Virus record (IMG/VR): IMGVR_UViG_2778261154_000010
Span: 1 to 8,314 of that record
DNA: 8,314 nucleotides
Source of the DNA: a virus
Lineage: Duplodnaviria; Heunggongvirae; Uroviricota; Caudoviricetes
Strand: one strand, 5' to 3'
In this document: positions 1 to 8,314 of the stretch, in pieces
Layout of the letters: the number at the start of each line of letters is the position of its first letter
Position numbering within the stretch: position 1 is the first letter of the stretch
The notes under the pieces: generated by a model
Seen by the model: only the letters and a program-made list of their open reading frames with translations
What the model was told of the DNA's origin: nothing
Databases searched by the model: none
Made by a program: the position numbers and the translations under genes

Positions 1-13
1 TTTTTCTGCTCAT
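1..13 (-). CDS. Start of an unidentified minus-strand gene running off the window (only 4 codons, MSRK, visible)
   Basis: ATG at 13..11 preceded by AGGAG (plus-strand CTCCT at 20-24) with a 6-nt spacer, downstream of the stop of the 75..455 gene. Too short to assign a product. Confidence 0.3.
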
Positions 14-74
14 TATTAGCTCCTTCTGATGCCATTCTATTTCAGGAAGGAGTGTCCGTTAAACTCAGGCTACC

Positions 75-455
75 TCAGTTTGCCGCATGCAGTGATGGCA
101 GAATCACATAATCCTGCTGTTTTTCAGTAAACGCAGGGATTGGCTGAACAACTTCTGTCACATCTGCATGCTGACCCGTGTTTTCTGTTCCGGACGCTTC
201 CTGTCTGGCTGTTTTTTCACTCTCAGTCCCTCTCTGTGGGATTAAATCCACAACGGGGGTTTCACGATACCCGGCCTGTTTTTCCTCATCGCCGGATGTC
301 AGCCACCACATCGGGCCTTTGTTGTCTGCCTCACCCCGACGCTTCAGTTTCCACAGCTCGTTGATTGCTTCATCCCGGGTCATGCCCAGGCGTGCTGCAA
401 CTTCCTGTGAAGAGGCTTTTCCCATTGCTTTCAGTGCGTCAAAAACGGTCTCCAT
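75..455 (-). CDS. Small phage protein of unknown function, possible winged-helix fold, immediately downstream of P
   Basis: ORF track 75..521; I prefer the internal ATG at 455 (METVFDALKAMGK...), which has GGGAGA 9 nt upstream. The ATG at 521 has AGGAG only 1 nt away and would overlap P. The segment SSQEVAARLGMTRDEAINELWKLKRRG looks HTH-like. Family assignment from memory is uncertain. Confidence 0.6.
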   Translation of the reverse strand: METVFDALKAMGKASSQEVAARLGMTRDEAINELWKLKRRGEADNKGPMWWLTSGDEEKQAGYRETPVVDLIPQRGTESEKTARQEASGTENTGQHADVTEVVQPIPAFTEKQQDYVILPSLHAAN

Positions 456-489
456 AAAATTTTTCTCCCGGTAAAAATCACTTCTCAAC

Positions 490-1155
490 TCAAACAAAAC
501 CAGCCGCTTTCCGGCGTTCATACTCCTGTTTCAGCAACTCAATTGGCGTTGGTCCCGCAGGACGTTTTGGTCCTGCCAGTTGTCGCCGGATGGGCGGAAC
601 ACTGAAGCCATTACCAACATGCTTTGCCCATTTCGTCAGTTGCCGTTCTGCAAGTCGTTTTAACTCCCCTTCGGTCATCTGCCGCTCAATCCCTTTTGAA
701 CGCATCTCGAGGCAGATGTGATACAGCACGGGCTGGGGCCACGGGTATTTATCGCTCCCGTCGTATCGCCAGGACTCATTGCGCCAGCGACGGTACTCTT
801 CCATCACGGCATCCACCGTCAGACCGAATGGATTGGCTCCGCTTTCCGAAATCAGCGCCACAAACTCAGCCAGGTCCGGAGGCCATGTTTCACCCGCCCG
901 ACAACGCTCCATGCACTGGCGGCAGACCTGCCGGATTTGCTGCTCAGTCATCGCGCCAATCTGTGCAATCCAGAGCTTCGAAGGTGCGGCTCCGTTCTTC
1001 CGGGTCCAGCGGTTCGAATAAACCTCCCCCATGAGTTCCCACAGCTTCCAGGCCGTTTCCGTCGCTGATAAATCCGTTTTCACGTTCCCACTGCTCACGT
1101 GCTGCCCGAATTTCCTGAACTGCCCGTGATGCGGTGCCACCTGGTGCTGCTGCAT
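490..1155 (-). CDS. Replication protein P-like (helicase-loader family of lambdoid phages)
   Basis: 221-aa ORF directly after the O-like gene. The C-terminal two-thirds resemble lambda P as recalled from memory (YPW motif, basic C-terminal tail). ATG at 1155 has a G-rich SD (AAGGGGGG) 5 nt upstream. An alternative start at 951 (MTEQQ) overlaps the O stop in an ATGACTGA arrangement. The 5-prime boundary is uncertain because 944-1155 is also covered by the O frame. Confidence 0.7.
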
Positions 1156-1984
1156 GGCTGCCCCCCTTGCTGACTGGTTTGACCTGTGCCCTGACGTGAT
1201 TTACGTGACGGGCGAATTTCTGCTCCCACTGAACCTGCGTGAACACTTTGCCCTCCGCCATCCAGTAATCCCGGAATGCGGCAAGTTCAGCAGGTGTAAA
1301 TTCCGGCTCCGGCAGAGCCACTCCCCACAATGCAGCCCGCCGTCGAAAATCCGGCGACGGATGCCAGCCATCGGTCATCGGAAATTTCCCGATGGGTTCA
1401 CTCAGGCCGTCCGGAAATTCAGGTTCCGCCACCTGCAACGGCGTACCGTTCGACTCGCTGGTCGGAGCACTCTCGCGCACGCGCGCGTTATGTGTGGGGT
1501 TTAATTCTTTATCTGTATCTTTATCTGTCGTGACTCGTCGTGACATGTCGTGACATATGCGTGACTCATCGTGACATCCCTCATCCTTTTTTCGTGATTT
1601 TTCCCTCTCACGCTGCGCTCTCTTCCGCTCTGCCGGGGATTTCGCGGTTTGCGAAACATTACCGTTATCCTCTTTCGCTACCTGGCGTTTTTCCCATCCG
1701 GTGATTAAATCTCCATCAAGTACCCGCCCCTGCATTGCCCGCAAAATTGAATCAATTGACTCTTCTGTCACGTCGAGCGCACTTGCCAAATCTTCTGTCG
1801 TGACATCAATGTGACCACGTCGTGACACGTCGTGACATGTCGTGACATTTCGTGACGCACTCACCAGAAGGTGAACATAAACCGCCATCACCGTTGCGAT
1901 TGGCTGCCCTGACACCCTGGAAATTGTTCGCCACTTGGGATCATTTGGCATGTCATGCCATAATCTGAGCCATGAAGTAGCCAT
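944..1984 (-). CDS. Phage replication initiation protein, O-like / replisome organizer, containing origin iterons
   Basis: 346-aa ORF with an N-terminal wHTH-like segment ([25 protein letters not shown]), a charged low-complexity linker and a C-terminal domain, followed by a P-like gene. Two arrays of CGTGAC 10-bp repeats lie inside it, as iterons do in lambda O. Its start ATG sits 2 nt after the stop of the upstream ORF (TAATTATG). Confidence 0.75.
1528..1575. repeat. Iteron array 1: five phased copies of (T/G)CGTGAC at about 10-bp spacing, flanked by an AT-rich tract (1500-1527); putative ori
   Basis: CGTGAC at 1529, 1539, 1549, 1560 and 1570, with a degenerate CGTGAT at 1593. The adjacent ttaattctttatctgtatctttatctg is AT-rich. 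Lies in the linker-coding part of the O-like gene. Confidence 0.6.
1798..1856. repeat. Iteron array 2: six phased copies of the same CGTGAC(A) 10-bp unit inside the N-terminal coding part of the O-like gene
   Basis: CGTGAC at 1799, 1821, 1831, 1841 and 1851, plus TGTGAC at 1810; spacing 10-11 bp. Same unit as array 1, about 270 bp away. Confidence 0.55.
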
Positions 1985-1986
1985 AA

Positions 1987-2718
1987 TTAATACCAGCGCT
2001 CCGCTACCAGTTTTTTCCAGTTCCGGGTATCCTGGTACGCAATATCAATACCGTGACTAAGGTTCATATCACGGAACCATTGACGCTGCTCCCAGATCTG
2101 CCATCTGCGACATTTCACTTTCTTCGGGATTACCAGGACTGAAAGAACACCAAGAACCGGTGCTTTCCCTGTATAACGTCTTCGGGCATAATCACGTCTG
2201 CATACTGCCTTTAGACCAAAGTAAACCCCTGACGGAAATACAATCACAGCGCCAGCCAGCAGAACCAGGAGTAATCGGCGAGAACCATGGATACTATCTG
2301 GAGTGAATTTGTTACCTTGTTCAATACGAATCCAGCTCTCATTTCGTTCATATGGACCGTGATTACCTTTGGGTTGGGTATCTGTTTCGGTCATTGGCTG
2401 GCAGTAAACAGGGACAGACGCAAGGAATTCAACGCAATCGCAGATCCTATCGCGGCCGAATTGATGCAAAAAATTAACCTTGCCAGAAAAGGGCTTCTCA
2501 ACATAGTGCAAATTAGCCCGCGTGATATCGCTGAACTCGAAAGAATGCTTAGCGCCAGGAAAGCGCGAAGACTCAGCCATGCCTTCATGGCATATGAGAA
2601 GGCATGCGAAAATTGCGGTAGTTATTCTGTTGATGGTCTTTACGAATTTCACTCCCCCGAGATTTTTATTAAAGGGGCTGAAAACCTTCTGGTTTTTCTC
2701 AAGCGTCGATGATTTCAT
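1987..2718 (-). CDS. Hypothetical 243-aa protein embedded in the early operon between ydaT-like and O; predicted hydrophobic segments near the C-terminus
   Basis: ATG at 2718 lies 11 nt after the ydaT-like stop with GAGGA 7 nt upstream. Its stop TAA is 2 nt before the O start, and O has no good SD of its own, which suggests translational coupling. Codon usage in 1987-2286 is E. coli-like (ctg, ccg, cgt, ggt). Caveat: the 5-prime 430 bp is antisense to a plausible plus-strand ORF, so only one of the two may be real. Confidence 0.5.
2287..2712 (+). CDS. Hypothetical 141-aa single-pass membrane protein, antisense to the early operon (possible moron or exclusion-type gene)
   Basis: ORF with a clean N-terminal TM helix ([24 protein letters not shown]) followed by NRDRRK and an amphipathic helical domain, so a very protein-like sequence. 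AGGAG at 2267-2271 is 15 nt from the ATG, which is poor spacing. It is the exact codon-aligned antisense frame of the 1987..2718 ORF, so it could be a shadow ORF. Confidence 0.35.
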   Translation: MDTIWSEFVTLFNTNPALISFIWTVITFGLGICFGHWLAVNRDRRKEFNAIADPIAAELMQKINLARKGLLNIVQISPRDIAELERMLSARKARRLSHAFMAYEKACENCGSYSVDGLYEFHSPEIFIKGAENLLVFLKRR

Positions 2719-2728
2719 TAATGCTTCC

Positions 2729-3154
2729 TCAATGTACAGCCACGGCATTTCCCGCCGGGCCACCACGATTCATCTGGTTGAAACCGGCGATCGCCACTGC
2801 GACAAAATCATCAGCATCTCTCACCAGTCGTTCCCGCGTCTCCACCAGCTCCCGAAAATAAGCTGAACTGTGGCTGCGCATTCTGGCCACCAGCAAAGGT
2901 GGCATTGCCTTTTCGATCGCTGGTAACAACGCCTGAATTTTTTCAACTGCATCAGGGGTGTCTTTCTCCACCCAGCGGAAAATTTTCTGAGTATTGCGAG
3001 CCAGGGCTTCCGGATGTGAATCGTCGTACAGCTCCGGAAACGTCATTCCCAGTTCAAAATACGCTTTGGTAATCTCTGCAGCCGGTACTTTCTCACCGTC
3101 CGGATGCGCCCAGGTATTCATCGCCATGCGGATGTGTTCATGCCTGATTTTCAT
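2729..3154 (-). CDS. ydaT: YdaT-like protein (cII-position gene of Rac-type prophages)
   Basis: 141-aa ORF (MKIRHEHIRMAMNTWAHPDGEK...) immediately downstream of, and overlapping by 17 nt, the Cro/YdaS-like gene. GGAG sits 7 nt upstream of the ATG at 3154. Size and position match the YdaS-YdaT pair of Rac-like prophages; the assignment is from memory. Confidence 0.7.
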   Translation of the reverse strand: MKIRHEHIRMAMNTWAHPDGEKVPAAEITKAYFELGMTFPELYDDSHPEALARNTQKIFRWVEKDTPDAVEKIQALLPAIEKAMPPLLVARMRSHSSAYFRELVETRERLVRDADDFVAVAIAGFNQMNRGGPAGNAVAVH

Positions 3155-3410
3155 GAATCAACTCCGGTTCATTTGATCTGTTAACCTTACATCCAACAGG
3201 TAAACCGTCGGTCGGGTTAGGGTATTTATCAGGGCGCAATTCATGCGGAGTCACTCCCCAGTCAAGCGCCTCACATGCAGGAATAACCTCCTCCGCAGGA
3301 ACTCGTTTTTTAAACCACCCACTTATGGTTTGTGGAGTTTTACCAAGACGACGCCCTAATTCTGATTGGCTCATTATCGACAGGATTTTTATTTGAGTAC
3401 TTTTTTGCAT
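3138..3410 (-). CDS. Cro/YdaS-like HTH DNA-binding protein (first gene of the early operon)
   Basis: ORF track 3138..3422 begins at a TTG. I prefer the ATG at 3410 (MQKSTQIKILSIMSQSELGRRLGKTPQTISGW...), which has GGAGGG 4 nt upstream. The HTH is near the N-terminus and an LRPD motif near the C-terminus is typical of YdaS/Cro-like proteins. Divergent from the repressor gene. Confidence 0.75.
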   Translation of the reverse strand: MQKSTQIKILSIMSQSELGRRLGKTPQTISGWFKKRVPAEEVIPACEALDWGVTPHELRPDKYPNPTDGLPVGCKVNRSNEPELIHENQA

Positions 3411-3536
3411 GTTTCCCTCCAAACTTTACGATGGTATCGATAATTACAAATTTAATTTTAAATTTCAACTTCTATTTGTAATGCCACTTATCAATTTTTT
3501 CTGTAGAATTGCGAGATTAGTTTTCGAGGGGTGGTG
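3411..3536. promoter_or_regulatory. Divergent promoter/operator region between the cro-like and repressor genes
   Basis: AT-rich 126-bp intergenic region. Contains the 15-mer AATTACAAATTTAAT (3442-3456), which recurs exactly at 4684-4698, plus a partial inverted partner ATTTGTAA (3475-3482). Candidate -10 TAGAAT at 3504-3509 for the repressor gene; candidate -35 TTGAAA on the minus strand for the cro-like gene. Confidence 0.55.
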
Positions 3537-3929
3537 ATGATCTTTGTAAAACGCCTTCAGCAGGTGTTGCAGGAATTGAATATAAACCAGTCAGAGCTGG
3601 GAAGACGTCTTGGTGTAAAACCCCAATCCGTGCAAGGTTGGTTGAAAGGCGTGATGCCAAGAATGGATAAACTGGAAAAATTAGCAGAGCTCTCACAACA
3701 TCCCGTCCATTGGTTCTTTATGGAAGAAGAAGCTCTCGGCGATAAGATGGCTGTATCCACTAATGACAACCAACCGCAACTTACAGAACAGCAACGAAAA
3801 ATCATATCGCTTTTAGATGAGTTACCTCAAAGCGACGCAGAGCAGATCATTCGAGATATGGAGCAAAAACGCGATTTCTATAAACGAAAACTTGAAGAGT
3901 TACTGCGGCAGAAAAACAAAACTGCCTGA
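3537..3929 (+). CDS. Prophage immunity repressor, XRE-family HTH (DicA/RacR-like)
   Basis: ORF track 3531..3929 begins at a GTG; the ATG at 3537 has GAGG 6 nt upstream. N-terminal HTH (QSELGRRLGVKPQSVQGWLKG) and a C-terminal helical region resembling DicA as recalled. Divergent from the cro-like gene. Confidence 0.8.
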   Translation: MIFVKRLQQVLQELNINQSELGRRLGVKPQSVQGWLKGVMPRMDKLEKLAELSQHPVHWFFMEEEALGDKMAVSTNDNQPQLTEQQRKIISLLDELPQSDAEQIIRDMEQKRDFYKRKLEELLRQKNKTA

Positions 3930-3975
3930 TGCGTTCCTTTTCTGGAACGAGTATCAGGCAAATGACTAGCAGATT

Positions 3976-4335
3976 TTATAATCCCACCAAGCTTTCCAAG
4001 GGGATACCAAATTGATTATGAAGACGGCGAATCATTGGTAACGTAAGGCTTCTGGTGCCATTCAACACCTCGTAAACCCGATTTTTTTTCCCAATTGCGG
4101 GTTCCAAATCTTTCACGGTCAGCCCCTGCTGTTCCATGCGAAATCTTATAGCTTCAATTGGGGATGGTGGCTCAATGGGATAATGTTTTTTTTCATATTC
4201 CTCTATTAGCAAACACATCACCTCAAAGAAATCCCCCTCAGGCGTGTTAATTTCCGGTTCATTGTCGAACATAGGCTCAACAGCACGCAACGCGGCTTCA
4301 TAATCTTGCTCTGTACGAATAGGTTTGATGTTCAT
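3976..4335 (-). CDS. higA: HigA-like antitoxin (XRE-family HTH) of a type II toxin-antitoxin pair
   Basis: 119-aa ORF starting 2 nt after the toxin stop, with GGAG 5 nt upstream. C-terminal HTH (GLTVKDLEPAIGKKNRVYEVLNGTRSLTLPMIRRLHNQFGI) typical of HigA antitoxins. Toxin-first gene order is typical of HigBA. Confidence 0.75.
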   Translation of the reverse strand: MNIKPIRTEQDYEAALRAVEPMFDNEPEINTPEGDFFEVMCLLIEEYEKKHYPIEPPSPIEAIRFRMEQQGLTVKDLEPAIGKKNRVYEVLNGTRSLTLPMIRRLHNQFGIPLESLVGL

Positions 4336-4337
4336 GC

Positions 4338-4640
4338 TTACTCCAGTTCGATGGTATCAGCATCAATGGCATCGTATTCCTTGTGGCTTCCGATGAATTT
4401 AACAAATACCCATCCTCGCTGATACGCAATTGCAACAATTAAACGGTAATGATTACCTTTTATGTTGAATACCACACGCCGGCTTTTCAATATACTAGCC
4501 GTTCGGTATTGTGCCTTAATGTCTGCCGGGCTTTTCCAGTCAGCTTTTGCTGCCTCATCCACCCATGCCCTTAGCGGTTGTTCTGCATCGGGATTCTCCG
4601 CCCAAAAATCCCTGAGTGTTTTAACTGAGATGATCTTCAT
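4338..4640 (-). CDS. higB: HigB-like toxin (RelE/ParE superfamily mRNA interferase)
   Basis: ORF track 4338..4685; I prefer the ATG at 4640 (MKIISVKTLRDFW..., 100 aa) because a sigma70-like promoter sits inside the upstream extension. The motif NIKGNHYRLIVAIAYQRGWVFVKFIGSHKEYD parallels the E. coli HigB C-terminal region as recalled. Confidence 0.7.
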   Translation of the reverse strand: MKIISVKTLRDFWAENPDAEQPLRAWVDEAAKADWKSPADIKAQYRTASILKSRRVVFNIKGNHYRLIVAIAYQRGWVFVKFIGSHKEYDAIDADTIELE

Positions 4641-4646
4641 AACTGC

Positions 4647-4675
4647 ATGATAGTCCCATTTTGGGACTAATGCAA
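4647..4675 (-). promoter_or_regulatory. Putative higBA promoter with a palindromic operator in the spacer
   Basis: Minus strand reads TTGCAT - 17 nt - TATCAT, with the perfect inverted repeat TAGTCCCA-AAA-TGGGACTA (4651-4669) filling the spacer. The -10 ends 6 nt before the ATG at 4640, implying a leaderless or near-leaderless toxin mRNA. Confidence 0.5.
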
Positions 4676-4683
4676 TCGTTCGC

Positions 4684-4743
4684 AATTACAAATTTAATAA
4701 TAAATATATTGACCAATTAAATTTTAATTTGTAGATTGTATCC
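4684..4743 (+). promoter_or_regulatory. Putative early-left (dicB-operon, Pb-like) promoter with repressor operators
   Basis: -35 TTGACC (4709-4714), 17-bp spacer, -10 TAGATT (4732-4737). The 15-mer AATTACAAATTTAAT (4684-4698) lies just upstream of the -35 and its degenerate inverted partner (ATTAAATTTTAATTTGTA) fills the spacer. Confidence 0.55.
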
Positions 4744-4912
4744 ATCAACCCACCCCGCCCCACAGAACGCAGGGCAATACTTCGAGTTACCAGGCAGTGG
4801 TCAGGGGTTAAGTAGCCAGCCCGAGGCGTAAGAACATGACGGCAGGGTTCAAATTTTGCAGTGCAGCAGGTTTTAGTTCCGCCACCCGGCGTTAAGGGGA
4901 AATGAGGTCAAC

Positions 4913-5068
4913 ATGAATACTATCGATCTTGGCAACAACGAATCTCTGGTATGTGGCGTGTTCCCCAACCAGGATGGAACGTTCACCGCCATGACTTATA
5001 CCAAAAGCAAAACGTTTAAAACCGAAGCTGGCGCGCGTCGCTGGCTGGAAAGAAACTCAGGTGAGTGA
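4913..5068 (+). CDS. ydfA: YdfA-like small protein (51 aa)
   Basis: ATG at 4913 with GAGG 5 nt upstream; MNTIDLGNNESLVCGVFPNQDGTFTAMTYTKSKTFKTEAGARRWLERNSGE. Size and position as first gene of a ydfABC-dicF-dicB operon as in Qin; below the ORF-track length cutoff. Confidence 0.7.
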   Translation: MNTIDLGNNESLVCGVFPNQDGTFTAMTYTKSKTFKTEAGARRWLERNSGE

Positions 5069-5069
5069 T

Positions 5070-5198
5070 ATGGATTTCGACACAATCATGGAAAAGGCTT
5101 ACGAAGAATACTTCGAAGGCCTTGCCGAAGGCGAAGAAGCTCTCAGCTTCAGCGAATTTAAACAGGCGCTTTCCAGTTCGGCAAAATCTAACGGCTGA
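5070..5198 (+). CDS. ydfB: YdfB-like small protein (42 aa)
   Basis: ATG at 5070, 1 nt after the ydfA stop, with AGGTGA 6 nt upstream; MDFDTIMEKAYEEYFEGLAEGEEALSFSEFKQALSSSAKSNG. The ORF track instead shows a 90-aa ORF in another frame (5065..5337), which I reject. Confidence 0.7.
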   Translation: MDFDTIMEKAYEEYFEGLAEGEEALSFSEFKQALSSSAKSNG

Positions 5199-5226
5199 TA
5201 AGCGAAACAGCACGCGAGGAATCAGT

Positions 5227-5337
5227 ATGCAGAAACGAGAACCCGTCATCATCGCGCCAGACTATACCGATGATGAACTTTATGAGTGGATTTTGGCGGC
5301 ATCAGTTTCATTGCTGGCTGATGTCCGCCCTTTTTAA
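5227..5337 (+). CDS. YdfC-like short ORF (36 aa) whose 3-prime end reads through the DicF-like sRNA sequence
   Basis: ATG at 5227 with GAGGA 6 nt upstream; MQKREPVIIAPDYTDDELYEW.... The stop TAA lies in the terminator T-tract. Shorter than K-12 YdfC as I recall it, and the tail may be fortuitous translation of the sRNA region. Confidence 0.4.
   Translation: MQKREPVIIAPDYTDDELYEWILAASVSLLADVRPF
5279..5335 (+). ncRNA. dicF: DicF-like small RNA (cell-division inhibitor sRNA of dicB-type operons), divergent variant
   Basis: The core GGCGGCATCAGTTTCATTGCTGGCTGATGTCCGCCCTTTTT closely resembles K-12 DicF as recalled, and the following AAAGTGAATTTTGTGATG..GGTGAATGCGGCT.AGCGCACGCGG also resembles the K-12 downstream sequence. 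The 5-prime end is set by processing and is approximate. Confidence 0.7.
5295..5335 (+). terminator. Rho-independent terminator forming the DicF 3-prime end
   Basis: Stem GGCGG-c-ATCAG (5295-5305) pairs with CTGAT-gt-CCGCC (5318-5329), leaving a 12-nt loop, followed by CTTTTT (5330-5335). Confidence 0.65.
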
Positions 5338-5619
5338 AGTGAATTTTGTGATGCGGTGAATGCGGCTAAGCGCACGCGGCACAGTTAAAAGTCATGTTAG
5401 TCCTTATTGTTTTGGGTGGGAAAGCCGACTGTAATTGTTAACTGGTTAACGTCACCTGGAGGCACTAGGCACCGCATCAACAAAGTTCACTTCGGTGATG
5501 AAAGGAAAGAGAAAATGTTGAATGTAGCTATTGAAAACCAGAACGGGTGGAATTATAGTGCACCTGCACCTCATAAAACGGGTGCCGGGATTAGCACCCC
5601 GAAAGTTACTCGAGCGCAT

Positions 5620-5642
5620 AACCGCGCTGAAGCGGTTTTTTT
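5620..5642 (+). terminator. Short hairpin plus T7 tract; weak candidate intrinsic terminator or attenuator
   Basis: AACCGC-gctgaa-GCGGTT followed by a run of seven T (5636-5642). The stem is only 6 bp, so function is uncertain. Confidence 0.3.
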
Positions 5643-5808
5643 ATGCGTAATGCACAGCTACATTCAAATTATGGTGAGGCGTGCGGGGCAGCCGCAAGGC
5701 TGGCCGGGTTCTCGAGTGACCGGTAGTGCTAACCCTGTGCGTCTCACCACCCATGAGATTAGCACCTCTGGTGGTGAGTTAATTAACTTATCACTTGAGG
5801 ATGTCATT

Positions 5809-6357
5809 ATGGCTACTACCCTTTCTCACCCTGACGTAACCATCGAAAATGGTCGCGCCGTCACTACTTCTATTTCGATTGCTGAGTTTTTTGGCAAGCA
5901 GCATCACCATGTTGTTCAAAAAATAGAATCCCTCGAATGTTCTGAACTATTTTTAACCAGCAACTTTTCGCGGGTTAAATTTGAACACCGCGGCAATTCT
6001 TATAACGCCTACCAAATCACCAAAAACGGCTTCGTTTTCCTGGTGATGGGCTTCACTGGCAAAAAAGCCGCTGCATTCAAAGAGGCATACATTGCTGAGT
6101 TCGACCGCATGGAGGCCGAACTGCGCCAGAATAACACCCCACCTGCTGACAAGATGATTCCGGGTGATGGTCGCACTCTGGTTGTTCACTTCGACAAATT
6201 CGGCAATGTCGAATTCACCGAAACCGTTCCTGATGGCGCACTGGTCTGTACCCTGGAGACTTTCCGGTTTTATCTGGAAAAACAGGGATGGACTCTTGTT
6301 AACCGGGGCGCAATTAAAAATATGACTGTGGAACAATTACTCAAAATTCATTGTTGA
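5809..6357 (+). CDS. rha: Phage regulatory protein Rha (pRha domain) inserted between DicF and dicB
   Basis: MATTLSHPDVTIENGRAVTTSISIAEFFGKQHHHVVQKIESL...FVFLVMGFTGKKAAAFKEAYIAEFDRMEAEL matches the Rha-family N-terminal domain as recalled. GAGG sits 8 nt upstream of the ATG at 5809. The ORF track extends the frame to 5407, but the extension is not protein-like. Confidence 0.75.
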   Translation: MATTLSHPDVTIENGRAVTTSISIAEFFGKQHHHVVQKIESLECSELFLTSNFSRVKFEHRGNSYNAYQITKNGFVFLVMGFTGKKAAAFKEAYIAEFDRMEAELRQNNTPPADKMIPGDGRTLVVHFDKFGNVEFTETVPDGALVCTLETFRFYLEKQGWTLVNRGAIKNMTVEQLLKIHC

Positions 6358-6367
6358 GGACGCAATA

Positions 6368-6556
6368 ATGGAGACGTTATTACCAAACGTTAATACGTCT
6401 GAAGGTTGTTTTGAAATTGGTGTCACTATCAGTAACCCTGTATTTACTGAAGATGCCATTAACAAGAGAAAACACGAACGGGAGCTATTAAATAAAATAT
6501 GCATTGTTTCAATGCTGGCTCGTTTACGTCTGATGCCAAAAGGATGTGCACAATGA
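6368..6556 (+). CDS. dicB: DicB cell-division inhibitor (62 aa)
   Basis: METLLPNVNTSEGCFEIGVTISNPVFTEDAINKRKHERELLNKICIVSMLARLRLMPKGCAQ is near-identical to E. coli K-12 DicB as recalled. GAGGA sits 7 nt upstream of the ATG. Confidence 0.9.
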   Translation: METLLPNVNTSEGCFEIGVTISNPVFTEDAINKRKHERELLNKICIVSMLARLRLMPKGCAQ

Positions 6557-6744
6557 ATACAGTATTTGCACTCGTTCTGACGGTTTTTCTTGTTTCCGGT
6601 GAACCGGTTGACATGGTTACTGGCGTATACAGCTCAATGAAAGAATGTATGACTGCCGCAGCGAAACAGAAAATTCCCGGTGACTGTTATCCGGTCGATA
6701 AAGTTATTCACCATGATAATAACGAAATCCCGGCAGGTCTTTAA
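6553..6744 (+). CDS. ydfD: YdfD-like small membrane/lysis protein (63 aa)
   Basis: ATG at 6553 overlaps the dicB stop (ATGA). MNTVFALVLTVFLVSGEPVD... has an N-terminal hydrophobic segment and closely resembles K-12 YdfD as recalled. The ORF track shows a longer 6499 start that overlaps dicB. Confidence 0.8.
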   Translation: MNTVFALVLTVFLVSGEPVDMVTGVYSSMKECMTAAAKQKIPGDCYPVDKVIHHDNNEIPAGL

Positions 6745-6828
6745 AACAGTTCCGTAATAAATATCCGGTTTCATTCTTATATGCCAGCAATGGCAGGGGT
6801 TCGCTCAACCTTAATTAAGGAGAAAAAC

Positions 6829-7026
6829 ATGATTACCAGTTATGAAGCCACTGTTGTAACTACTGATGACATTGTTCACGAGGTTAATCTGGAAGGAAAG
6901 CGTATTGGCTACGTGATTAAGACAGAAAATAAAGAAACCCCATTCACTGTGGTTGATATCGACGGTCCATCAGGCAACGTTAAAACACTTAACGATGGTG
7001 TAAAAAAATGTGTCTGGTGCACATAG
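6829..7026 (+). CDS. Hypothetical small protein (65 aa) ending in a CVWC motif
   Basis: ATG at 6829 with a strong AAGGAG 5 nt upstream; the ORF-track start at 6781 would include that RBS. MITSYEATVVTTDDIVHEVNLEGKRIGYVIKTENKETPFTVVDIDGPSGNVKTLNDGVKKCVWCT. No confident family assignment. Confidence 0.6.
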   Translation: MITSYEATVVTTDDIVHEVNLEGKRIGYVIKTENKETPFTVVDIDGPSGNVKTLNDGVKKCVWCT

Positions 7027-7102
7027 GAAAGAATCTGCCCGCAGAAAAAAAAGCCGAATTTCTGGCAACTCTGATTGCAATGAAATTAAAAGGTGAAATC
7101 TG

Positions 7103-7132
7103 AAAAAAAGAAAGCCTGCACACTGTGCAGGC
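7103..7132 (-). terminator. Hairpin with a U-tract on the minus strand: intrinsic terminator oriented against the flanking plus-strand genes
   Basis: Perfect 8-bp stem GCCTGCAC / GTGCAGGC (7114-7121 and 7125-7132) with a 3-nt loop. On the minus strand it is followed by TTTCTTTTTTT; on the plus strand no T-tract follows it. Confidence 0.4.
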
Positions 7133-7202
7133 CTGAGTGAAGAACCTGGGACATTTATTCATCACTCGCAGTAATTTTAATCTGAGTTGAGGTTAAAAAA
7201 CA

Positions 7203-8314
7203 ATGAGCACCGATAAACAAGTTTACCCACTGTATTACGAAGCAAAAAATGACAAAGTAAGAAAACGCCTCGGTATTAAAGGCGGTTTTTACTGGGCTGA
7301 AGCGAAAAAATTATCCATTGCCATCTCCCGTGGTGCTGTTGCGATTGACGATGCAGGCTACGATGAAGATGACTTTAAAAAACCTGTTCACGTCAATTTG
7401 CCCGTTGTTGATGACCTCCCGCCAGAAGGCGTGTTTGATACGGAATTCTGCAACCGTTACGAAAAAGGCGGGGAAGATGGCATCACAATGGTATTTATCG
7501 CATCTTCTCCCTCTGTTCAGGACAAACCAGCCAGCACTGACAATACCAACGTCAACGGCGAAGACATGACAGAAATTGAGGAGAACATGCTCCTGCCAGT
7601 TTCCGGTCAGGAACTGCCCATTCGCTGGCTTGCGCAACACGGCAGCGAAAAACCGGTAACGCACGTTTCACGCGACGAACTCCAGGCATTACACATTGCT
7701 CGGGATGAAGAACTACCGGCTGTTACTGCTCTGGCTGTTTCGCATAAAACCAGTCTGCTCGACCCGCTGGAGATTCGCGACCTCCACAAACTCGTGCGTG
7801 ATACTGACAAAGTTTTCCCTAATCCTGGCAATTCAAATCTGGGACTGATGACTGCTTTTTTCGAAGCATATCTGGATGCCAACTACACCGATCGCGGTCT
7901 GCTGACAAAAGAGTGGATGAAAGGAAATCGTGTTTCGCGTATCACTCGCACGGCTTCCGGTGCTAATGCTGGCGGCGGGAACCTCACCGATCGCGGCGAA
8001 GGTTTCGTCCACGATCTGACGTCGCTGGCGCGCGACGTAGCCACTGGCGTACTGGCCCGTTCAATGGACGTGGATATTTATAACCTTCATCCGGCACACG
8101 CTAAACGTGTCGAGGAAATTATCGCTGAAAATAAACCGCCCTTTTCTGTTTTCCGCGACAAATTCATCACCATGCCTGGCGGGATGGATTATTCCCGCGC
8201 CATCGTGGTTGCGTCAGTGAAAGAAGCACCGATTGGTATCGAGGTCATCCCCGCGCACGTCACTGAATATCTGAACAAGGTACTGACTGAAACCGATCAT
8301 GCCAACCCTGATCC
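7203..8314 (+). CDS. recE: RecE-like (exodeoxyribonuclease VIII family) N-terminal region, open at the 3-prime window edge
   Basis: Uninterrupted frame from ATG 7203 to the window end (at least 370 codons); it is absent from the ORF track presumably because it has no stop in the window. Segments such as [43 protein letters not shown] and [20 protein letters not shown] match the Rac RecE N-terminal region as I recall it. Its position at the distal end of the early-left operon fits a recombination gene. The family call is from memory and not verified. Confidence 0.55.

Follow-up and report, generated by a model that had tools for sequence, protein, structure and literature searches.

The replication initiator gene of a lambdoid Escherichia coli prophage contains two arrays of short, helically phased direct repeats (iterons), which we interpret, with moderate confidence, as binding sites for the N-terminal winged-helix domain of the gene's own product and as the two parts of a single bipartite origin embedded in that gene. 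The gene (944–1984, minus strand; 346 amino acids) lies in a window of 8,314 nt, namely positions 1 to 8,314 of the IMG/VR virus record IMGVR_UViG_2778261154_000010, whose content is the immunity and replication region of the prophage. Whatever their effect on replication, both arrays are very probably functional sites of one specificity, as indicated by selection on their DNA sequence and by concerted variation of their repeat units among relatives.

The hexamer CGTGAC occurs 13 times in the window compared with 3.4 ± 1.9 expected, and 13 copies were reached in none of 200 dinucleotide-preserving shuffles. Ten exact copies and one TGTGAC make up the two arrays, both of which are phased at 10–11 bp and lie inside the initiator gene. 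Array 1 (1529–1575, minus strand) consists of five units, GTCACG on the coding strand, with CGTGAC on the plus strand at 1529, 1539, 1549, 1560, and 1570 (spacing 10, 10, 11, and 10 bp). Array 2 (1799–1856, minus strand) consists of six units, with CGTGAC at 1799, 1821, 1831, 1841, and 1851 and TGTGAC at 1810 (spacing 11, 11, 10, 10, and 10 bp). It is located about 230 bp upstream of array 1 in the direction of the gene, and the two arrays have the same orientation. Tandem Repeats Finder (TRF) assigns a period of 10 to each. Positions, counts, TRF, and shuffles all agree with a first-pass annotation of this DNA, which had described two phased CGTGAC arrays within the gene.

Array 1 encodes amino-acid residues 137–152, in a linker, and array 2 encodes residues 43–62, within the N-terminal domain, where the annotation had placed it. 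GTCACG is read in all three frames, as GTC ACG (Val-Thr), nGT CAC Gnn (x-His-x), and nnG TCA CGn (x-Ser-Arg), which results in the peptide repeats of the initiator; translation of both arrays confirms the HD(V/M)SRR-type repeats that had been noted earlier. Array 1 adjoins an AT-rich (GATAAA/GATACA)n tract encoding DKDTDKE (1500–1528, minus strand; 23% GC; TRF period 6/12), and the linker encoded here is predicted to be disordered, so the proposed pairing of array 1 with an AT-rich tract in linker-coding DNA is retained. This tract is kept beside array 1 in all of the hexamer classes described below. The flanks of array 2 are 43–57% GC and contain no comparable tract, either in the window or in relatives. 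On its other side the AT tract is flanked by a GC-rich element that belongs to the C-terminal module (1472–1499, minus strand; 67–73% GC; coding strand CCCCACACATAACGCGCGCGTGCGCGAG), is stem-forming (CGCGCACGCGCGCG), and is also found in loci L009 and L010 and in ydaU of Rac-SA53, which has a different N-terminal domain.

An inverted copy of the hexamer (GTCACG on the plus strand, 1767–1772, encoding Asp71-Val72-Thr73) is located 32 bp from the nearest unit of array 2 and is a possible extra site. It is present at the same place in most GTCACG-class relatives and is replaced by CGTTAC in L034, a replacement that L030 does not share. The status of this copy is uncertain because its synonymous positions are only partly constrained (entropy 0.83 and 0.51 bit). 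The bases flanking the hexamer units are weakly conserved in relatives and are not palindromic; a palindromic structure of the 10-bp unit, suggested by GACATGTC at the unit junctions in the window, was dropped because it is not conserved in relatives.

Comparison among relatives shows that both arrays are kept by selection acting at the level of the DNA, as judged from their synonymous positions and from the covariation of their units. Across 23 four-unit GTCACG-class genes from several genera, third-codon entropy is 0.10 bit at the eight positions within array 2 hexamers and 1.52 bits at the 80 other third positions of the N-terminal domain (Mann–Whitney p = 2e-6). The earlier suggestion that DNA-site and coding constraints overlap here is borne out both by these frozen synonymous sites and by the three-frame reading. 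In addition, family members without array 2 have unrelated peptides at the corresponding loop (AEDRGHTEGW, AVERGTLVNV, AEARGSLQNL, SEERGTVQ, and others), which indicates that the fold does not require the iteron-coded peptide. The iteron-coded Cys is likewise not conserved (GHD variants occur).

The arrays were compared in 125 distinct loci, obtained from one genome per species (52 loci) and from viral contigs. A first scan of viral contigs yielded close relatives only and was used for copy-number polymorphism; a second scan, seeded with distant members, provided the extra classes. The class of a locus is defined by the dominant hexamer in the array 2 region (gene nt 100–240) and in the array 1 region (gene nt 300–560). 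An initial screen for the top hexamer in the linker was swamped by (GATAAA)n and was replaced by a shared-hexamer test with control windows and a cross-table of classes. The class is identical in the two arrays in 111 of the 112 loci that have both (GTCACG in 44 loci, GTAACG in 8, (C)GAACG(C) in 58, and GTGACG in 1), and the single discordant locus, L010, has degenerate units. When control windows from other parts of these loci were compared, a hexamer was shared at a level of at least 2 + 2 copies in only 10 of 449 cases. Array 1 is present in 117 of the 125 relatives, always directly upstream of the AT tract in the direction of the gene. Five loci show that array 1 occurs without array 2, the reverse is never seen (0 loci), and eight loci have neither array; the position of array 1 is homologous to that of proven origins.

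As read from these loci, which are not independent samples, the four hexamer classes imply at least three concerted switches. One switch can be seen between close protein relatives: L016 (Erwinia) has twelve GTCACG units, L030 and L034 (Pantoea and Enterobacter) have GTAACG, and the Val-Thr units of both arrays have changed synonymously between GTC ACG and GTA ACG. The same block of about 32 nt is present in both arrays of L186, L189, and L009, which indicates that conversion or duplication between the arrays happens.

Both arrays are likely read by the same factor, and the initiator is the probable binder because no partner other than its N-terminal domain remains constant when hosts and gene neighborhoods change. 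Array-bearing relatives are found in Escherichia, Pseudomonas, Aeromonas, Bordetella, Chromobacterium, Sphingomonas, and other hosts. The genes downstream of the initiator differ among them (P-like, helicase-like, LygF, and others), as do the repressors. In E. coli phage Evi, in Pseudomonas phage phita81A (66% nucleotide identity), in Aeromonas phage pAEv1818, and in prophages of O157:H7, the layout is complete: array 2 and the inverted copy are separated by about 200 bp from array 1 and its AT tract, and the hexamer is that of the window.

The initiator is composed of a DnaD-N-terminal-like winged-helix domain, a disordered linker, and a DnaT-like C-terminal domain, and has a distant resemblance to phage replisome organizers. 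The homology to lambda O that the first-pass annotation had assumed is not upheld: Phage_rep_O, the lambda O family, is absent from Pfam scans of the whole protein and of the N-terminal domain alone. The latter scan gave a weak match to HTH_Crp_2 and nothing else, and a sequence search of the PDB with this domain gave no meaningful match. TIGR01714 (phage replisome organizer, N-terminal region) aligns weakly over 118 of its 119 profile positions (18.6 bits vs. a cut-off of 49.8; E 0.0016), and many close relatives are named "phage replisome organizer" in RefSeq. In the C-terminal part, residues 201–267 match Pfam DnaT (PF17948; E 3e-18), and the initiator matches PHROG 1408/3729, "replication initiation protein."

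The N-terminal domain (residues 1–101, encoded at 1682–1984, minus strand), the presumed iteron reader, has the DnaD N-terminal-type winged-helix fold. In an AlphaFold2 model of the initiator (31 homologues; mean predicted local distance difference test score (pLDDT) 70.7, and 88–95 in most of the domain core), two N-terminal helices are followed by helices at residues 29–45, 63–70, and 74–84, a wing at residues 85–95, a basic helix at residues 117–134, and then a disordered stretch. Array 2 encodes the loop or hairpin between helix 29–45 and helix 63–70 (pLDDT 64–69), and array 1 encodes part of the disordered linker, with pLDDT below 50 for residues 136–160. The basic helix is encoded at 1583–1636 (minus strand), between the N-terminal domain and array 1, and its coding strand is purine-rich. 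Its residues Arg120, Lys121, Gln124, Arg125, and Arg127 are invariant in the GTCACG class, and the basic-helix region differs between classes.

For initiation, we propose that array 1 and the adjoining (GATAAA)n tract would form the origin core, with the tract as the putative DNA unwinding element. Initiator molecules would line up along a single face of array 1 in head-to-tail order, each helical turn binding one of them, and the AT tract beside the bound array would melt, after which the DnaT-like C-terminal domain and the P-like loader would recruit the host DnaB helicase. Array 2 would provide auxiliary sites in an insertion-tolerant, loop-coding stretch of the DNA-binding domain, where it may raise occupancy and help to build a higher-order initiator–DNA complex by looping or wrapping of the approximately 230 bp between the arrays. 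In some CGAACG-class origins two units lie beside the AT tract and three in array 2, and such origins fit a shared complex. The location of the sites within the coding sequence of their reader would keep site and reader linked through the frequent mosaic recombination of lambdoid phages. We infer, rather than observe, that the region fires as an origin, that looping occurs, and that the effect of array 2 is positive. Phased direct repeats under selection at the DNA level, a general feature of iteron-type origins, are present, and an adjacent unwinding element is present for array 1 and absent for array 2.

Several points weigh against this interpretation. No binding or replication data for this initiator family were found in the searchable literature, and the helix at the usual "recognition" position of the fold (residues 74–84) is acidic. 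Array 2 has been lost in five lineages and hence is not essential. Where array 2 is missing, array 1 has no more units than elsewhere (about four in either case), and this lack of copy-number compensation gives no sign that array 2 helps rather than restrains. The distance between the arrays ranges from 158 to 340 bp, with no conserved helical phase beyond shared ancestry. Gene conversion between the arrays could also partly maintain the covariation; it would explain their identity, not their long-term retention.

The arrangement can be compared with several replicons that carry their origin within the initiator gene. Like the initiator described here, G38P of phage SPP1 has an N-terminal origin-binding domain, with marginal sequence similarity. 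SPP1 gene 38, whose sequence was examined here, has 11-bp phased repeats at gene nt 360–410 and an AT tract at nt 411–450, so that repeats and tract occupy nt 360–450 compared with nt 410–480 in the window; both lie in the linker-coding part of the gene, and in both genomes a helicase loader gene is located directly downstream of the initiator gene. The SPP1 repeats and tract are the G38P-bound AB boxes and the unwinding element of oriL, and a 356-bp piece containing them is both required and enough for replication in vitro (PMC5737612; PMC6316719). SPP1 differs in that the N-domain-coding part of gene 38 contains no second array, and in that its second G38P site, oriR, is intergenic, at a distance of about 13 kb, and accompanied by an AT tract of its own; moreover, the window initiator has a DnaT-like C-terminal domain and a lambda-P-like loader. 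In E. coli CFSAN029787, 41 kb of sequence from this prophage contain two motif clusters only, and no third, distant array resembling oriR was found there. An origin inside rep is also a feature of the RepA_N initiators (pSK41 and pTZ2162 Rep). In pSK41, whose Rep protein is DnaD-like, four Rep boxes are located centrally in rep and encode a dispensable linker (PMC5703833). These replicons differ from the present one in being Gram-positive plasmids with a single set of boxes, no detectable homology, and no array in the N-domain-coding part.

Lambda ori in gene O shares with the window its position in the early right operon, a P-family loader gene downstream, the order of iterons followed by an AT-rich tract in the direction of the gene, and a location in the linker-coding region between the origin-binding and loader-binding parts; in both systems the N-terminal and C-terminal modules recombine separately. 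The lambda iterons are four inverted repeats of about 19 bp that are bound by O dimers. Here, in contrast, 6-bp cores are in direct repeat every 10–11 bp and Phage_rep_O is absent, and lambda has one array. Two iteron arrays of the same specificity served by one initiator are found in plasmids P1 (incC/incA) and F (incB/incC), where the arrays are located on either side of the rep gene and the distal one exerts negative copy-number control. The present loci are similar in that the origin core is accompanied, at a distance, by another array of identical specificity (111 of 112 loci; gap 158–340 bp). They differ in that the two arrays, which belong to a phage and are about 230 bp from each other, both lie within the gene. 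In the origins of the Staphylococcus pathogenicity islands (SaPIs), hexamer or octamer iterons occur in two sets, are read by the island's own initiator, and have class-specific sequences; that initiator is a helicase fusion, and the two sets are located outside its gene, on either side of an AT-rich region.

Iterons in initiator genes and pairs of arrays with one specificity are therefore known. What seems to be new is a second, co-evolving array within the sequence encoding the DNA-binding domain: no description of such an array, or of the origin of this family, was found in open-access papers, and an older description is possible. Two papers on Shiga-toxin (Stx) phage replication regions mention neither the iterons nor this initiator (PMC8044961; PMC8951638).

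The most evident alternative keeps the same binder and reverses its effect. Array 2 may restrain the origin or the operon, via handcuffing in cis, titration of the initiator, or a block to RNA polymerase that would autoregulate the initiator and the P-like loader. This is possible, and we consider it rather unlikely. It accords with the shared specificity of the arrays, the distance of array 2 from the unwinding tract, the dispensability of array 2 in five lineages, and the lack of compensation in array 1 where array 2 is missing. Both arrays are also in the transcribed path from a pR-like promoter region at about 3440–3480, and negative second iteron arrays are established for P1 and F. However, established control arrays are located outside rep, restraint of copy number would bring little benefit to a lytic or induced phage, and the CGAACG-class origins with two units at the AT tract and three in array 2 are more easily reconciled with a shared complex than with a brake. 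A helper and a brake role for array 2 are not told apart by the comparative data, which are neutral as to the direction of its effect. No internal promoters or terminators above background were found in or near the arrays.

The first-pass annotation had left three options for array 2, namely part of a bipartite origin, a duplicated origin, or sites for another protein. The comparison among relatives speaks for a bipartite origin, or for auxiliary sites that the same protein would read, and disfavors the other two. A second, independent origin in the same gene would be consistent with the units of array 2, which are in the same orientation as those of array 1 and equal or exceed them in number, and SPP1 has two G38P-bound origin-like sites (PMC6316719). 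Such a duplication is nevertheless very unlikely, given that no AT-rich tract accompanies array 2 in the window or in relatives, that array 2 is never found without array 1, and that conserved domain-coding sequence leaves no room for an unwinding element. It is just as improbable that one or both arrays are bound by a different protein, either another phage protein or a host factor such as the winged-helix regulator PhoB. About half of the array units, at their 10–11 bp phasing, are preceded by T and read TGTCAC, which resembles the direct repeats of the pho box (consensus CTGTCAT/C), and the initiator's role as binder is one that we infer. We judge the pho-box likeness to reflect a shared binding mode, that of a winged helix on direct repeats, and not to be evidence for PhoB. 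The flanking bases are weakly conserved, neighboring phage genes are not conserved, and the N-terminal domain is constant; moreover, the four classes covary within one protein family (111 of 112 loci) from Enterobacteria to Pseudomonas, Bordetella, Chromobacterium, and Sphingomonas, and a conserved host factor would not change its site.

The repeats might also have no function at the DNA level, as peptide repeats or as a slippage-prone simple sequence that persists. Their copy number varies among close relatives (4, 5, 6, or 9 units in array 1; 4 or 6 in array 2), an additional unit puts the gene of E. coli SCU-104 out of frame, and the encoded motifs contain Cys and His. This explanation is barely credible and is already contradicted by the synonymous-site and covariation tests. 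A single hexamer is translated in three different frames, the near-absence of synonymous variation is confined to the hexamers, and GTC is replaced synonymously by GTA in all Val-Thr units between close relatives; in addition, the Cys is not conserved, the linker is predicted to be disordered, and relatives lacking array 2 show a highly variable loop.

It is conceivable, and on balance unlikely, that the loop encoded by array 2 itself helps to read the iteron, so that the same nucleotides would serve as a binding site and also encode part of the protein that reads it. Besides the segment after the wing (an indel and the basic helix, residues ~107–134), this loop is the main part of the N-terminal domain that differs systematically between classes, and the canonical recognition helix is acidic. 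The loop of L047, which has GTCACG iterons, keeps Arg-Gly-His where the DNA does not require it. On the other hand, L047, L170, L172, and L202, which have array 1 only, combine GTNACG-type iterons with loops that bear no relation to the iteron-coded peptides, and the basic helix (residues 117–134) differs between classes as well. If the loop does act as a reader, conversion between the arrays would rewrite site and reader at once and would be a one-step route to new origin specificities or replicon incompatibility classes.

The N-terminal module (window 1490–1990, including both arrays) is present in 2198 of 5426 complete E. coli genomes, so that the analysis provides a candidate origin for an initiator module carried by about 40% of them. 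Among the carriers are Shiga-toxin strains, including O157:H7. A single genome has up to five or six copies, and several O157:H7 strains have three; all copies in E. coli genomes are of the GTCACG class. The whole initiator gene together with P is found at a coverage of at least 80% in 658 of the 5426 genomes. The hexamer classes predict which co-resident prophages may cross-activate or compete for origins and initiator. At least four natural specificity classes with matched sets of site and reader constitute a data set for how a DnaD-like winged helix reads DNA, and binding sites inside the coding sequence of their presumed reader domain are a strong case of overlapping codes. Because array 2 can be destroyed by synonymous recoding, its role is cleanly testable.

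BLAST matches to the N-terminal module end at window position 1506, and those to the C-terminal module and P at about 1526, which identifies the AT tract as the joint between two separately recombining modules. The AT tract with the CCCCACACATA(A/G)CGCGCGCGTGCGCGAG element (window 1472–1528), the whole C-terminal module, and P are common to Rac-type ydaU. In the ydaU of Rac-SA53 (L060, gene nt 480–545), the N-terminal domain is of the DUF1376 type and the linker contains a different repeat (GTGTTCAAACA / TGTTTGAACA).

Most members of the initiator family have a four-unit array 2 encoding NVTRGHVDVT. The two extra units in the window correspond to an in-frame insertion of 21 bp (1820–1840, minus strand; residues 49–55, TCHDVSR), as seen in protein alignments including one of 55 loci; its exact placement within the repeat is ambiguous. 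Thus, the idea that array 2 is an in-frame insertion applies to these two units and fails for the array as a whole, the four-unit form of which is common across genera and classes. Among 80 close relatives, array 2 has six units in 77 and four in 3, and the unit number of array 1 is 4, 5, 6, or 9; the reading frame is intact in 79 of the 80. In E. coli SCU-104 (L005, gene 958–2005), array 1 (1540–1596) has one extra 10-bp unit and RefSeq annotates the initiator as frameshifted; slippage by a single unit would be a ready route to frameshift and prophage inactivation. In Pseudomonas sp. JAI111 (L028, gene nt 140–225), the array 2 loop is longer by 22 residues and contains four forward and three inverted GTCACG-type units, which indicates that this loop tolerates large insertions. 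Other variants depart further from the usual layout. L050 and L056 (gene nt 300–470) have the same N-terminal domain fused directly to an unrelated C-terminal part and contain neither usual array, with ACTACG/GTAGTA repeats at gene nt 320–360 and 455–470. In L196 (gene nt 400–560), the open reading frame (ORF) ends after about 135 amino acids and is followed by the AT tract and by GTTACG units in opposite orientation, as if the origin part had been inverted.

A segment of 1,151 bases of the window (900–2050) is 100% identical in the E. coli genomes of CFSAN029787, one O121 isolate, and others. The limits of the initiator gene are identical in the ORF list and the RefSeq coding sequence, and the gene occupies the position of lambda O, between a YdaT-family gene at the cII position (2729–3154, minus strand) and the lambda-P-like helicase loader gene (490–951, minus strand; Pfam Phage_lambda_P, E 4.5e-16; PHROG 109, "P-like helicase loader"). 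The start of the latter at 951 is that of RefSeq and gives an overlap of 8 nt with the initiator stop, which fits translational coupling; the mechanical ORF list has a P-like ORF of 221 amino acids (490–1155, minus strand) that overlaps the initiator gene by 211 nt. The Cro/YdaS-like gene is located at 3138–3422 (minus strand) and the cI-like repressor gene at 3531–3929 (plus strand). An extra ORF (1987–2766, minus strand; in RefSeq 1987–2718, 243 amino acids, hypothetical protein WP_001300539.1) without a match in Pfam, NCBIfam, or PHROG separates the YdaT-like gene from the initiator gene and looks like a moron-type insertion; in L001 and L004–L006 the YdaT gene directly precedes the initiator gene. 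A gene pair for a HigB-family toxin and a helix-turn-helix antitoxin (3976–4640, minus strand; RefSeq annotation) adjoins the cI-like repressor gene.

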